IMG/VR virus record: IMGVR_UViG_3300029563_000007 | Coordinates: 1-58,356 of that record | Length of the DNA: 58,356 nt | Source: a virus | Direction: 5' to 3' (one strand) | In this document: piece by piece, positions 396-54,475 of the stretch | Position numbering within the stretch: position 1 is the stretch's first letter | How the letters are laid out: every line of letters starts with the position of its first letter | Notes under the pieces: model-generated | What the model saw: only the letters and a program-made list of their open reading frames with translations | Told to the model about the DNA's origin: nothing | The model's database searches: none | Translations under genes and position numbers: made by a program

Positions 396-400
396 CATAT

Positions 401-472
401 TGCCCCTTAGCCAAGTGGTCAAGGCACAGGATTTTGATTCCTGTATCGTGGGTTCAAATCCCACAGGGGTAG
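401..472 (+). tRNA. tRNA-Gln (anticodon TTG)
   Basis: Hand-folded cloverleaf: acceptor TGCCCCT/AGGGGTA, anticodon stem CAGGA/TCCTG with loop TTTTGAT, T arm GTGGG-TTCAAAT-CCCAC; no encoded CCA. Confidence 0.85.
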
Positions 473-835
473 TTCAAGTGTTTAATTACACTTGTGCCTT
501 TACAGGACTTATTGGTTTACTAGCATTAAGTCCTCCTTTCACCTCATAGCGAGAGCTGTTAAGGACTGTCAGATAGTCCGTGAGGTTTTGCGTATTATAA
601 ATACGCAAATAAAATTAAGTTATACCTATAGCGCAGCAGTTATCTGTATGGATAGACAGCGAGCGAAGCTACTTTCTTTGAGCCCAACTGCACGGGTAGA
701 ATGACATCCAAGCTTTGCCACGACCTGTTATAGGTGTCATAGCCTATACTGCTATTAAGACTAGCATTGTTTTTCAGTATCAACTATCCACCTTAATCGA
801 AACATTTTCACAATGCTAGTCTTTTAAAACGATAT

Positions 836-925
836 GGAGAAGCGGCAACGATTGGCGGTGTTGCGGCAGACTGTAAATCTGTTCCCTTGCGGTAAACATT
901 GTAGGTTCAATTCCTATCTTCTCCA
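836..925 (+). tRNA. tRNA-Tyr (anticodon GTA), long variable arm
   Basis: Acceptor GGAGAAG/CTTCTCC+A, anticodon stem GCAGA/TCTGT with loop CTGTAAA, T arm GTAGG-TTCAATT-CCTAT, long extra arm as in bacterial tRNA-Tyr. Confidence 0.8.
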
Positions 926-929
926 CTTT

Positions 930-1012
930 GCCGATATGGGATAAAGGTATTCCAGTAGCTTGCTAAGCTATCCAACAGAAATGTTGTTCGTGTTCGATTC
1001 ACGATATCGGCG
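930..1012 (+). tRNA. tRNA-Ser (anticodon GCT), long variable arm
   Basis: Acceptor GCCGATA/TATCGGC+G, anticodon stem GTAGC/GCTAT with loop TTGCTAA, extra arm CAACA-GAAA-TGTTG, T arm TCGTG-TTCGATT-CACGA. Confidence 0.8.
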
Positions 1013-1087
1013 TTTTGAAAGCACTTCTTGGGTCTGCGTGCGTAATGTTGTTTGCGGACTTATCCTAGGTTAAGAGGTGTAAGTAAG

Positions 1088-1131
1088 TTGCTATAAGTGG
1101 TGCCGTAAGGTTCGATTCCTTACATAGCAAT
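1088..1131 (+). ncRNA. tRNA-like acceptor/T-arm minihelix A (no D or anticodon arm)
   Basis: TTGCTAT-AAGTGGTGCC-GTAAGG-TTCGATT-CCTTAC-ATAGCAA: 7-bp acceptor-like stem, 10-nt linker, 6-bp stem with canonical T-loop. Confidence 0.5.
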
Positions 1132-1187
1132 TACAACAAACTAGGTTAGCTACCGAAAAGCACAAGCCTTAGTGCCTGTTTGTTGTT

Positions 1188-2318
1188 TTGTTAATAAGGC
1201 AGTTATCAGAAAGGCAGGTAATAAATATGCTATCAGAAAATGAAATCCAAACAAAAGTTAATTTTCTATCATCAGCAAGGTGTAACCACACATTCCATAA
1301 ATACATTGACATAACAGGCGATTTGATAGAGGGTGCGCTATTATCAAGAATTTTATATTGGTTTGCACCAACTAAAGATAACAAAAGCAAAGTCAAGATA
1401 TACAAAGACGGCGAATATTGGATTGCGAAACAAAGAAAAGACTGGTGGGAAGAGATAAGGATTACTGAAAGGCAGTATGATAAAGCAATTAAATCGTTGG
1501 TGAAAAAGAAATTTGTAATTACAGCAAAATACAAATTCAATTCAATGCCGACTATACATATACGACCTAATTATGATGTTATCAACGCAGAAGTTAAAAA
1601 ATGGGAAAATAGTATCAGGCAAGAGGTTATAGCAGAAGATGCAGGACAGGAGTTACATAAACAAGCAGACGGGAATGACACAAAATGTAATTCCCAAGGG
1701 AATAACACAAAGTGTAATTCGGGAGTGTCACAAGATGTAACTCTTTTAACAGGGATTACTAACAATGATTACCCTAACACTAATTACGGAACATTAAATA
1801 CAGAGTGTAATTCTCTTAACAGAGAACAATGCAATTCTTTTTTACCCAAAGATAAAAAAGCGAAAGAGTTTAAGCCGATAAGCGAATACTCTCAAAGTGA
1901 TTGGGAAGTTGCCGAAGAAAGAATGATAAGTAGAGCTGGCAATATAGCTTATGATTGGACTAACGATAAAACGCTCAAAGAAAATACAGAAGCATTCTTT
2001 AAATACTTTTTAGATAAACACGGAGAATGTACCGGAGAATATCACTACCCATTAACAGATAAGGTTTTATCAAGAGTAGTAGATAATTTAACAAAAGAAA
2101 CCGACATAGAGCGTGACGGATATACAGATACCTATTATGCGGCTATAAGTGATATGGACGATAATACAGACTACAAGATGTTGGTTGATGAATATTTCAA
2201 CACAAAGTTTTCAACACAATGTGATTACAGCTTAGTTCACTTTTCTTCTGAAAAGGTTTTAATTAACATTATGAATCACGCTTGTAAGAGTAGCTGGTGC
2301 GAAAGCAAAGAATGGTAA
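1188..2318 (+). CDS. replisome-organizer/DnaD-like DNA-binding protein (N-terminal winged-helix-like region), iterons inside the gene
   Basis: ORF track 376 aa (ATG alternative at 1227); N-terminus ...LLSRILYWFAPTKDNKSKVKIYKDGEYWIAKQRKDWWEEIRITERQYDKAIKSLVKKKFV resembles phage replication-organizer N-domains; function is inferred. Confidence 0.5.
   Translation: MLIRQLSERQVINMLSENEIQTKVNFLSSARCNHTFHKYIDITGDLIEGALLSRILYWFAPTKDNKSKVKIYKDGEYWIAKQRKDWWEEIRITERQYDKAIKSLVKKKFVITAKYKFNSMPTIHIRPNYDVINAEVKKWENSIRQEVIAEDAGQELHKQADGNDTKCNSQGNNTKCNSGVSQDVTLLTGITNNDYPNTNYGTLNTECNSLNREQCNSFLPKDKKAKEFKPISEYSQSDWEVAEERMISRAGNIAYDWTNDKTLKENTEAFFKYFLDKHGECTGEYHYPLTDKVLSRVVDNLTKETDIERDGYTDTYYAAISDMDDNTDYKMLVDEYFNTKFSTQCDYSLVHFSSEKVLINIMNHACKSSWCESKEW
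1686..1837 (+). repeat. iteron-like direct repeats TG(T/C)AA(T/C)TC x5 inside the 1188 gene (candidate ori)
   Basis: TGTAATTC at 1686, 1713, 1806; TGTAACTC at 1736; TGCAATTC at 1830, each preceded by A-rich ACAAA/ACAGA context. Confidence 0.5.
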
Positions 2319-46979: not shown

Positions 46980-48167
46980 ATGGGAAAAGATTTAAAAGGT
47001 AAAGAACTAGGTGTAGGATTGTCGCAGCGAAAGGACGGTGTGTATCAAGGGAGATATAAAGATAGATTTAATAAGATTAAATATATTTATGGCACAAAGT
47101 TATCAGAAGTTAAAAAAGAATTGGCTGTTGCAATAGCAGAAAATATTCAATTTACAAGCATTAGAGATGATATTAAGCTGGACGATTGGTTTAATCGTTG
47201 GATAGAAGTGTACAAAAAGAAAAGTGTACGCCCTAATACCCTTAGAGAATACACTCACATATACAATAAAAATATATCACCTTTTTTAGGAAATCGCAAC
47301 ATAAATTCCTTTGTTAAATCAGATATTCAAACACTAATTGATAAAATAGCTGATGACAATTATAAATATGAACGGCAGAACAAGATTAAGGTTATACTTA
47401 ATGATATGTTCAGTAGAGCAATAGAAGATGACTTAATGATTAAAAATCCAGCAAAAGGTGTAAAGCTTAGGGCTGATAAAGAACTTAAAGCTTTCACACT
47501 AACAGCAAAACAACAGATAGAGTTTTTAGAAGCAAGTAAAGGGACATTTTACGATAATTTGTATAATGTGGCAGTTAATACAGGCTTGCGGCCAGGGGAA
47601 TTGTTTGCACTTACACCTAATGATATACACTTAGATGAGGGGTATATTGATGTTAATAAGACACTTGTGTATCAAAAATACCTTGATGATAAGTGCAAAA
47701 CTTTTCACATTGAGCCGCCTAAAACCAAACAGAGTTATAGACAAGTACCTATTAACAGCGAATGCATTAAATATCTTGAAAAGCAGTTCGAATTAAAGGA
47801 TATTGTAAAGTGCAAAAGACCTAAAGAGCAGAACAATTATTTGTTTGTGACAAGTTATAACACGCCTCTCAATTCGCAGATTTATTCAGATTCAATTAAA
47901 GCTATTGTTAAGCAGATAAATCTTGCAAGAAGTTTTGATAACGAATTTCCTGTGTTTAGTGGACATACTTTAAGACATACTTTTGCTACAAGATGTTTTG
48001 AAGCAGGTGTGCAGGCAAAAGTTGTTCAATCATATTTAGGTCATGCAACTCTTAAAATGACAATGGATTTATATACACATGTAACAGAAGAAAGAGCGGC
48101 AGTAGATATTGAAAGAATTGTGAAAGACAAGGACAACATTGTTGATTTTAAGAAAAGTGCTGTGTAG
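46980..48167 (+). CDS. int: tyrosine integrase (Tn916-Int-like, with N-terminal arm-binding domain)
   Basis: 395 aa; N-terminus ...VGLSQRKDGVYQGRYKDRFNK..; catalytic GLRPGE, HTLRHTFAT, LGHATLKMTMDLYTH. Confidence 0.9.
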   Translation: MGKDLKGKELGVGLSQRKDGVYQGRYKDRFNKIKYIYGTKLSEVKKELAVAIAENIQFTSIRDDIKLDDWFNRWIEVYKKKSVRPNTLREYTHIYNKNISPFLGNRNINSFVKSDIQTLIDKIADDNYKYERQNKIKVILNDMFSRAIEDDLMIKNPAKGVKLRADKELKAFTLTAKQQIEFLEASKGTFYDNLYNVAVNTGLRPGELFALTPNDIHLDEGYIDVNKTLVYQKYLDDKCKTFHIEPPKTKQSYRQVPINSECIKYLEKQFELKDIVKCKRPKEQNNYLFVTSYNTPLNSQIYSDSIKAIVKQINLARSFDNEFPVFSGHTLRHTFATRCFEAGVQAKVVQSYLGHATLKMTMDLYTHVTEERAAVDIERIVKDKDNIVDFKKSAV

Positions 48168-52631: not shown

Positions 52632-52673
52632 TGCTTGCGGCTGGAATCGAACCAACCAGAACCCACAGCAAGC
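52632..52673 (-). ncRNA. tRNA-like acceptor/T-arm minihelix B
   Basis: Minus strand GCUUGCU-GUGGGUUCU-GUUGG-UUCGAUU-CCAGC-CGCAAGC-A; 6 of 7 acceptor pairs; no D or anticodon arm. Confidence 0.5.
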
Positions 52674-52674
52674 C

Positions 52675-52700
52675 AAAAAGGGCGCAGATTGTACGCCCTT
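52675..52700 (-). terminator. rho-independent terminator (minus strand) after the 52699 gene
   Basis: Minus strand GGGCG-UACAAUCUG-CGCCC then UUUUU. Confidence 0.6.
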
Positions 52701-53025: not shown

Positions 53026-53066
53026 AGCAAGCCGGGGAATCGAACCCCGGAAACGCCAGCCTTGCT
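53026..53066 (-). ncRNA. tRNA-like acceptor/T-arm minihelix C
   Basis: Minus strand AGCAAG-GCUGGCGUUU-CCGGGG-UUCGAUU-CCCCGG-CUUGCU; its first two nt are the AG of the upstream UAG stop. Confidence 0.55.
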
Positions 53067-53515: not shown

Positions 53516-53695
53516 CTATGCGTTTGCTTCTGCTCTTAAAATCTCAATGCATTCTTTTTTCGTGTGCTCTCCGTAAAATTTTATAGGCTTATGAAATGCC
53601 TTTGCAAGGGCAAAATTTTCTTGATTTTTTAAAAATAAATCACGGATTTCTAAAAATGTCTTTTTGTGGCTTTCATACTGTTCTTTTTTTGTCAT
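53516..53695 (-). CDS. hypothetical 59-aa protein
   Basis: MTKKEQYESHKKTFLEIRDLFLKNQENFALAKAFHKPIKFYGEHTKKECIEILRAEANA; SD-like GGAUGG upstream. Confidence 0.4.
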   Translation of the reverse strand: MTKKEQYESHKKTFLEIRDLFLKNQENFALAKAFHKPIKFYGEHTKKECIEILRAEANA

Positions 53696-53723
53696 AATAA
53701 TTAACCATCCTTTCTTTTTGCTT

Positions 53724-53782
53724 GTCTCATCAGTGGCAAGGTTGCAACCCTACACCAGACCGCCGGGCGGCGGTTTCGACTA
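53724..53782 (-). ncRNA. hammerhead self-cleaving ribozyme, type II topology (candidate)
   Basis: Minus strand GUC-GAAA-CCGCC(GCCC)GGCGG-UC|UGGUGUAGGGU(UGCA)ACCUUGCCA-CUGAUGA-GAC; all invariant core nucleotides in the canonical order. Confidence 0.7.
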
Positions 53783-53929
53783 TATCTTTATGAACATTTC
53801 CCAAGGTGCTATAATAATACCGCCTTTACAATCGGCGTATATTATTACTTCCCCATTTTTGGTTATTTCGTACTTTTTAAAAGTACATTCTATCTCATTG
53901 CCGTAAATAATCTTGTCGCCTATTTTCAT
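53780..53929 (-). CDS. hypothetical 49-aa protein
   Basis: SD GGAGGG then ATG; MKIGDKIIYGNEIECTFKKYEITKNGEVIIYADCKGGIIIAPWEMFIKI. Confidence 0.4.
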   Translation of the reverse strand: MKIGDKIIYGNEIECTFKKYEITKNGEVIIYADCKGGIIIAPWEMFIKI

Positions 53930-54431: not shown

Positions 54432-54475
54432 ATAATAACACCTTTTAAGGTGTATGTCAACACCTTTTAAGATGT
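54432..54475 (-). promoter_or_regulatory. leftward promoter with palindromic operators
   Basis: Minus strand TTGACA (rc 54455-60), 17 nt, TATTAT (rc 54432-37). ACACCTTTTAAGGTGT (54438-53) fills the spacer; near-copy ACACCTTTTAAGATGT at 54460-75. Confidence 0.6.

Follow-up and report, generated by a model that had tools for sequence, protein, structure and literature searches.

Comparative sequence evidence for a sub-threshold type II hammerhead ribozyme with a pseudoknot between two small cistrons of a temperate-phage operon

In vitro cleavage has been described for type II hammerhead ribozymes that carry a loop I pseudoknot, for ones with a stem II of as little as 1–2 bp, and for clusters that flank prophage genes (PMC3088659). 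In natural type II hammerheads, stem II is often only 1–3 bp long, normally 2–3 bp, and the fold is held by loop I pairing as a pseudoknot with the bases just 3′ of stem II (PMC3088659). Three type II copies from Desulfovibrio cleave in vivo (PMC8782182). For the clustered hammerheads of prophages, Perreault et al. proposed in 2011 that the two halves of the mRNA become uncoupled (PMC3088659), and the purpose of bacterial and phage hammerheads was rated unresolved in 2019 (PMC6765202). The fate of an RNA end made by a ribozyme has been followed for glmS in Bacillus, where the 5′-OH is the entry point of RNase J1 (PMC3997798).

We analyzed a motif in a viral DNA stretch of 58,356 nucleotides (IMG/VR record IMGVR_UViG_3300029563_000007), which we refer to as the window. 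Judged from its relatives, the motif is genuine: it belongs to the known class of type II hammerheads, scores below threshold, and is found in a typical phage setting. The window represents a temperate tailed gut phage of roughly 58 kb and 36% G+C, with genes for an SPP1-type portal, a large terminase, and a tail fibre with an S74 chaperone domain, and with a tyrosine integrase at 46980–48167. With 23 kb of the window as query, GenBank phages showed no near match, and distant mode gave short HTH-gene matches only. Elsewhere in the window (400–1199), three tRNA genes (Gln-UUG, Tyr-GUA, and Ser-GCU) are followed by an int-alpA RNA motif (1134–1199, 53.8 bits); the 376-aa ORF directly after this RNA (1188–2318) matches replication-initiator O-like PHROGs, not an integrase.

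The motif is part of an operon that runs leftward and divergently from a Cro/CI-type HTH gene. In this operon, small ORFs of 126 and 49 aa are followed by the hammerhead and then by ORFs of 59, 58, 77, and 93 aa. Pfam, PHROGs, and NCBIfam gave nothing usable for the six operon proteins. The 59-aa protein has 22 database homologues, and the 49-aa ORF has no hit in the three family databases and no homologue in the at least 118 related loci described below. The 84-nt gap between these two ORFs consists of the ribozyme motif and an SD sequence. At operon junctions with gaps of 12, 16, and 24 nt, no ribozyme was found. The elements that frame the motif are as follows.

54432..54460, minus strand: promoter-like TTGACA-17-TATTAT with a TG extension, upstream of the first gene (126 aa); consensus match only
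53780..53929, minus strand: upstream ORF (49 aa), preceded by a strong SD (AAGGAGGG); the UAG stop (53782–53780) overlaps stem II
53516..53695, minus strand: downstream 59-aa ORF, ATG at 53695, with an SD-like AAAGGAUGG at 53713–53705
52678..52700, minus strand: terminator-like hairpin and U run right after the last operon ORF (93 aa); consensus match only

The number of promoter-like sites in the region was not above that in shuffled sequences.

The ribozyme itself, read on the minus strand, is composed of the following parts.

53718..53780, minus strand: whole type II hammerhead ribozyme with pseudoknot tail (Rfam match 53716–53781; covariance models)
53778..53780, minus strand: stem II 5′ strand GUC (11.3–11.1), from sequence reading; paired family-wide
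53775..53777, minus strand: core G12 A13 A14, columns invariant or nearly so in 109 relatives
53777–53774, minus strand: GAAA, from sequence reading
53759..53774, minus strand: stem III hairpin, A15.1-U16.1 plus five G-C pairs, from sequence reading and folding
53757..53758, minus strand: predicted cleavage site, 3′ of C17 (53758), from the hammerhead consensus
53734..53757, minus strand: stem I hairpin; the outer five pairs all covary
53727..53733, minus strand: core C3 U4 G5 A6 U7 G8 A9 (CUGAUGA), from sequence reading
53724..53726, minus strand: stem II 3′ strand GAC (10.1–10.3), from sequence reading and family alignment
53718..53721, minus strand: 3′ tail GCAA, which pairs with loop I UUGC (53747–53744); pseudoknot, covaries

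The 5′ to 3′ order of these parts is the stem II 5′ strand, GAAA, hairpin III, C17, hairpin I, CUGAUGA, and the stem II 3′ strand; stems I and III end in loops and only stem II is left open, which is the type II topology. Stem III reads CCGCC-GCCC-GGCGG (53773–53760) with its GCCC loop at 53768–53765, and it is closed by A15.1 (53774) and U16.1 (53759). Both Watson-Crick pairs that flank the core are present, G53726-C53778 (10.1–11.1) and U53757-A53734 (1.1–2.1). Every canonical core base is found in the window copy at the right spacing, and the cleavage nucleotide, H17 (not G) in hammerheads, is C53758. Hammerhead chemistry predicts a 2′,3′-cyclic phosphate on 53758 and a 5′-OH on U53757. A preliminary description of this DNA had drawn a type II hammerhead here, and its coordinates, core, GUC cleavage triplet, and three stems all check out on the minus strand. 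Its reading of the type II topology, the position of the cleavage site, and the intercistronic placement was likewise supported, and the G that the upstream UAG stop shares with the stem II strand was confirmed at 53780. For stem I, 9 bp and a UGCA cap had been described. Relatives vary in a way that fits another arrangement, in which 53757–53753 pair with 53738–53734 (five outer pairs), U53752 is bulged, and three inner pairs carry the loop GUUGCAA (53748–53742).

The same description had cautioned that stem II is weak. This concern is resolved by the pairing of loop I with the 3′ tail, a pseudoknot that covaries across the family. In the window, UUGC (53747–53744) pairs with GCAA (53721–53718) to give 4 bp, and most near-identical relatives retain 3 bp; the pseudoknot competes with the U53747-A53742 closing pair. 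Helices between a loop and its own tail had a mean of 4.32, compared with 3.05 for permuted tails (z ∼15), and 0 of 2000 permutations reached the observed mean. A score of at least 4 was obtained for 72% of the 92 distinct loop/tail combinations and for 24% with permuted tails. The partners change together, as in UGACC/GGUCA, UGGC/GCCA, UUGCC/GGCAA, and UAGUC/GACUA. An extra A-U pair that had been drawn beyond stem II is not supported, and the 3′ bases assigned to it belong to this tail in the family. With the pseudoknot tail the ribozyme extends to ∼53718, past the end of the original span (53724–53782).

Against the hammerhead covariance models, which had been named at the outset as a check on the assignment, the outcome was split. 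At the Rfam gathering thresholds no hammerhead was found in the window, and only the tRNAs and the int-alpA RNA were reported. Because of this result, an E-value scan was needed, in which RF02276 (Hammerhead_II) matched 53716–53781 on the minus strand with 31.3 bits. This score is below the curated gathering cut-off of 37 bits, whereas the E-value is significant (E = 1e-4 for 301 nt and E = 0.02 for the whole window). The score below 37 bits reflects the subtype; the core is not broken. A generic type II pattern (CGAAAC..GTC..CTGATGAG) gave one match in the window and none in 100 dinucleotide shuffles. Folding energy alone was not significant (z = −1.33) and in the MFE fold stem I slides out of register into C3/U4, so the thermodynamic fold was set aside as support. 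The impression from the full-length fold that A/U-rich flanks mask the SD and AUG was dropped as chance (z = 0.28).

A covariance model of our own, R1, was derived from alignment A1 of 78 distinct sequences, the window sequence among them. With filters off, R1 found a single copy in the window at 81.5 bits, with a runner-up at 7.8 bits. Because R1 contains the window sequence, a further model, R2, was built from 81 more distant copies taken from loci without the window subtype. R2 scored the window at 67.8 bits (E ∼1e-17; runner-up, 9.4 bits), to be read with the caveat that about one-third of its training copies had been retrieved by a window-derived pattern, by which 27 positions are matched by construction in those copies. 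Neither R1 nor R2 detected further hammerhead copies in the window with filters off. The decisive support for reading the motif as a hammerhead is comparative.

Relatives were collected by an exact-pattern scan of viral contigs (GTCGAAAC..GTCTGG..CCACTGATGAGAC), which matched at least 118 viral loci with at least 126 instances and at least 69 distinct cores; R1 found 219 copies in 100 related loci. Hammerhead positions in relatives are covariance-model coordinates, as regex-based mapping missed most copies. Searched for in the genome collection, the window-type stem I had 0 exact matches, and the broad pattern had only 4. Two checks were independent of the RNA pattern. Many of the R1 matches reach 37–70 bits with Rfam Hammerhead_II and hence pass its cut-off, and when the 59-aa protein and its homologues were used in place of the RNA to retrieve loci, a hammerhead was again found immediately upstream of the gene. 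The Rfam cut-off misses copies of the window type and of “type B” (∼31 bits; L009:4733-4806, L009:5043-5116, and L127:2916-2979) and catches “type C” copies of the same operons (62–70 bits; L009:4498-4567 and L127:2449-2517). The subtype is likely to be under-annotated in gut viromes. Related phages have two to three different hammerhead “alleles” in the operon and from 2 to ∼12 copies, mostly 280–470 nt apart, that flank single small ORFs. The large arrays of ∼10–12 type II hammerheads, with each copy separating single small ORFs, are those of more distant contigs (L087, 1838–6039; L032, 9141–13229; L004, 8155–11329).

Covariation was computed on a model-guided alignment (A4) of 109 copies. 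In this alignment, where fitting to the model favors the structure, 98.9% of the helix cells are paired, compared with 24–63% in slid-partner controls. Double-sided changes occur in 12 of the 14 modelled pairs, and the covariation score was 0.70, compared with 0.17 in shuffles. Stem II is paired in 99.4% of cases and shows a compensatory change from UA to CG in 15 of 108. The A15.1-U16.1 pair is AU in all 108 distinct rows and C15.2-G16.2 is also invariant; the four inner pairs of stem III covary. C17 was kept in 109 of 109 sequences, and the CUGAUGA core varies only at U7 (9/109) and U4 (3/109, U4C). Among close relatives, the polymorphisms U/C at 53754, G/A at 53748, and U/G at 53752 fall at wobble, loop, or bulge positions. 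A MAFFT alignment of distant copies (A3) placed gaps in stem I that were inconsistent with the structure and was not used for the model.

The placement of the ribozyme is also conserved. In 65 of 95 distinct instances, the stop codon of an ORF of 30 aa or longer is a TAG that overlaps stem II, its G being the first base of the stem, or a TAA that abuts it. The end of an ORF lies within 12 nt of the hammerhead in 81 of 95 distinct instances, and in most instances the next ORF starts 17–32 nt past stem II. The 58 contigs that carry the window ribozyme subtype among the matches listed belong to the same phage lineage, with neighbor proteins up to 90–95% identical in the closest.

Taken together, we consider it likely, with a probability of about 0.72, that the motif is a functional-looking type II hammerhead with a pseudoknot in the leftward operon of a temperate phage, where it splits the operon mRNA between cistrons. 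The ribozyme probably cuts the operon mRNA at this point; both the cleavage and its purpose are what we infer from sequence. Against this reading count the Rfam score below the curated cut-off, the short pseudoknot of the window, the operon junctions that have no ribozyme, and the promoter and terminator, which are consensus matches only. The stem II 3′ strand would be transcribed last, after which the RNA would fold and cut itself after C17 (53758/53757). The upstream fragment would retain the intact 49-aa ORF and its stop and would have stem III, a G-C-rich hairpin, and a 2′,3′-cyclic phosphate at its 3′ end. The downstream fragment would carry its 5′-OH on the first nucleotide of stem I, which is base-paired; past this hairpin would come an unpaired SD and the 59-aa ORF. 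When folded, the predicted cleavage products adopt these structures, with the SD unpaired. One operon mRNA would in this way become two messages that decay and are translated independently, with the ribozyme serving as an insulator or punctuation mark between cistrons. Cleavage may stabilize or destabilize the downstream message; destabilization is conceivable because in Firmicutes a ribozyme-made 5′-OH can invite RNase J1 (PMC3997798).

The sequences around the ribozyme suggest a further property that has to be weighed against this reading. The window-type hammerhead (53718–53783) is 93–100% identical in 58 contigs among the matches listed, and its 150-nt flanks are at background identity (∼50–56%). 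Homology of the window to contigs L123, L124, and L127 begins exactly at the 5′ edge of the ribozyme (53782/53783), and the orthologous downstream gene, where present, is only ∼61% identical at the protein level. The ORFs flanking ∼116 instances fall into 55 upstream and 51 downstream clusters. By these comparisons the ribozyme is a mosaic breakpoint that travels with its downstream module, and recombination at the element is likely, because function alone does not require such sequence identity. The nearest relatives among the matches listed, L123–L126, come from four independent metagenome samples and are 97–98% identical in nucleotide sequence from 53782 downward; in these relatives, position 12 is A instead of G (GUCAAAAC), and stem III contains a C-A mismatch. 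A U4C core (CCGAUGA) occurs in the L127 group and in some sister copies. The core variants are located as follows.

L123:2912-2984, hammerhead with G12A; the same element in L124–L126
L127:2913-2983, hammerhead with U4C
L015:10893-10967, hammerhead with U4C
L038:4918-4992, hammerhead with U4C
L051:7770-7844, hammerhead with U4C

The G12A copy is probably a catalytically dead natural allele, and the U4C copies may be slow or conditional variants; these alleles imply that loss or weakening of catalysis is tolerated at this junction. All of these observations except the U4C copies would also fit a role at the DNA level, in which the element is a conserved linker where related phages recombine small gene cassettes and RNA cleavage is secondary or ancestral; G12A is a change that catalysis would not tolerate. 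We regard this explanation as unlikely. The stems of the family covary and only the core and the pairing are kept, which is the signature of selection on RNA; recombination can be a by-product of any conserved sequence, and the DNA and RNA roles are not exclusive.

The same variants bear on the possibility that the window copy is an inactive or very slow relic, which inherited the fold and has no useful cleavage rate in its host. The persistence of G12A in the nearest relatives among the matches listed and of U4C in sister copies, the pseudoknot of only 3–4 bp, the slipped stem I register of the MFE fold, and the Rfam score below threshold all point in this direction. Nevertheless, the window copy has all canonical core bases, its sequence type is nearly unchanged in dozens of phages, and published type II ribozymes with a 1–3-bp stem II and a pseudoknot are fast (PMC3088659), and we consider a relic improbable. 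Equally improbable in our view is a regulated cut, in which a ribosome terminating at the UAG over stem II melts stems II and III and cleavage is not constitutive. The stop codons that overlap or abut stem II in 65 of 95 instances would fit such gating. Stem III starts 9 nt past the stop, a distance that falls within the ribosome footprint. However, the overlap may be mere compaction, ∼15% of instances are without a nearby ORF end, and the conservation of A(−1) (80/109) and of A(−1) and A(+1) together (73/109) is possibly structural. The G-C-rich stem III and the folding z-score that is not significant could suggest that the likeness is due to chance or that the motif is simply a terminator or attenuator hairpin; this reading is refuted by the comparative data. 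There are hundreds of covarying homologues, the R2 E-value is ∼1e-17, the pattern is lacking in all 100 shuffles, and stem III is not followed by a U run.

The splitting of operon mRNA by a hammerhead may not be the only kind of punctuation in this operon. A tRNA-like minihelix occupies the 84 nt that separate the 77-aa ORF from the 93-aa ORF, and another lies beyond the last gene.

53026-53066, minus strand: tRNA-like minihelix, 77-aa/93-aa ORF gap, from sequence reading
52633-52673, minus strand: second tRNA-like minihelix, right after the terminator-like hairpin of the operon (GCUUGC...GUUGG-UUCGAUU-CCAGC-CGCAAGC)

The first of these (53066–53026) reads AGCAAG, a 10-nt bulge, CCGGGG-UUCGAUU-CCCCGG, and CUUGCU, followed by UUUAC. 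A 6-bp acceptor-like stem is stacked on a T stem of 6 bp, whose loop is the canonical UUCGAUU, and the 10-nt bulge stands in for the D and anticodon arms. Its first bases are overlapped by the upstream UAG (53067–53065), the layout seen at the hammerhead; both structures incorporate the preceding stop codon in their first base or bases. The minihelix is 87–94% identical in L123 and L127, in different gene contexts, and occurs in ∼50 related loci among the matches listed, in the same operons. Several sequence classes keep the pairing; the candidates were pre-selected for pairing, and only the diversity of pair types is informative. The second minihelix (52673–52633) is also present in L028, L104, L123, L124, and L125. 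The Rfam mascRNA-menRNA model gave weak matches of 17.9 bits to the window minihelix and 24.2 bits to that of L127. By analogy with the t-elements of plant mitochondria or with mascRNA, the minihelix is a candidate processing signal for RNase P/Z. A rival reading takes it for a tRNA-derived att core; the L127 copy, which appears to lie inside an integrated prophage on a 594.7-kb bacterial contig, argues against a split attP. In L127, the 77-nt gap between the first two operon genes holds, instead of a ribozyme, a plain G-C-rich hairpin (CCGGCGGCGG...CACCGCCGG, L127:2040-2085), a third kind of intercistronic element in the operon family.

From these elements we tentatively sketch a punctuated operon, in which the hammerhead and the tRNA-like minihelix, two unrelated modules of RNA processing in equivalent positions between cistrons, would insulate the mRNA of each small gene and serve as conserved joints for the exchange of cassettes between phages. 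The minihelix would presumably be cut by host RNase P and/or RNase Z. We view this broader model as possible and still rather doubtful. If true, it would explain a near-identical ribozyme across genomes with unrelated flanks. It carries the hint that a ribozyme and a tRNA-like minihelix can stand in for each other as punctuation of operons, and that both also act as joints for recombination.

The ribozyme class and its phage context were described in 2011, and the ribozyme itself is not new. What the present case adds is a subtype with many members, present in dozens of viral contigs from the human gut and elsewhere, that falls below the curated threshold of Rfam. With one ribozyme between two defined cistrons, it offers a clean natural system for studying the purpose of bacterial and phage hammerheads. 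Near-identical relatives have natural G12A and U4C alleles at this junction, and the copy number in sister phages ranges from 2 to ∼12.

In functional terms, the locus can be likened to RiboJ-type synthetic insulators, reportedly introduced by Lou et al. in 2012 and said to be an engineered type III hammerhead derived from sTRSV. By analogy, a hammerhead just upstream of an SD would shed the upstream RNA context and leave a 5′ hairpin; the window ribozyme is a natural type II hammerhead, whereas RiboJ is an engineered type III. The comparison with glmS (PMC3997798) concerns self-cleavage in a bacterial mRNA, where the 5′-OH determines the fate of the downstream message, with cleavage at the present locus being predicted. 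Unlike glmS, which is ligand-activated and located in a 5′ UTR, the window hammerhead is without an evident ligand pocket, and its predicted 5′-OH is base-paired.

The closest likeness in structure is to the type II hammerheads of RF02276 and Perreault et al. 2011, with which the window copy shares the topology, the core, a 3-bp stem II, a pseudoknot 3′ of stem II, and an intergenic phage or prophage context; its relatives in the same operons pass the Rfam cut-off. It differs from the RF02276 model in a longer, bulged stem I, one extra base in stem II, and a pseudoknot of 3–4 bp, and it scores 31.3 bits. Like the clustered hammerheads of Clostridium scindens, Azorhizobium, and Agrobacterium ardA (PMC3088659), it lies between cistrons of a long phage transcript, and its relatives carry multiple copies that flank single genes, as in those prophage clusters. 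In contrast to these clusters, the window has a single copy, and the flanking genes here are all unannotated. With ∼10–12 copies in a few kilobases, contigs L032, L087, and L004 exceed the triple arrangements described for prophages (PMC3088659).
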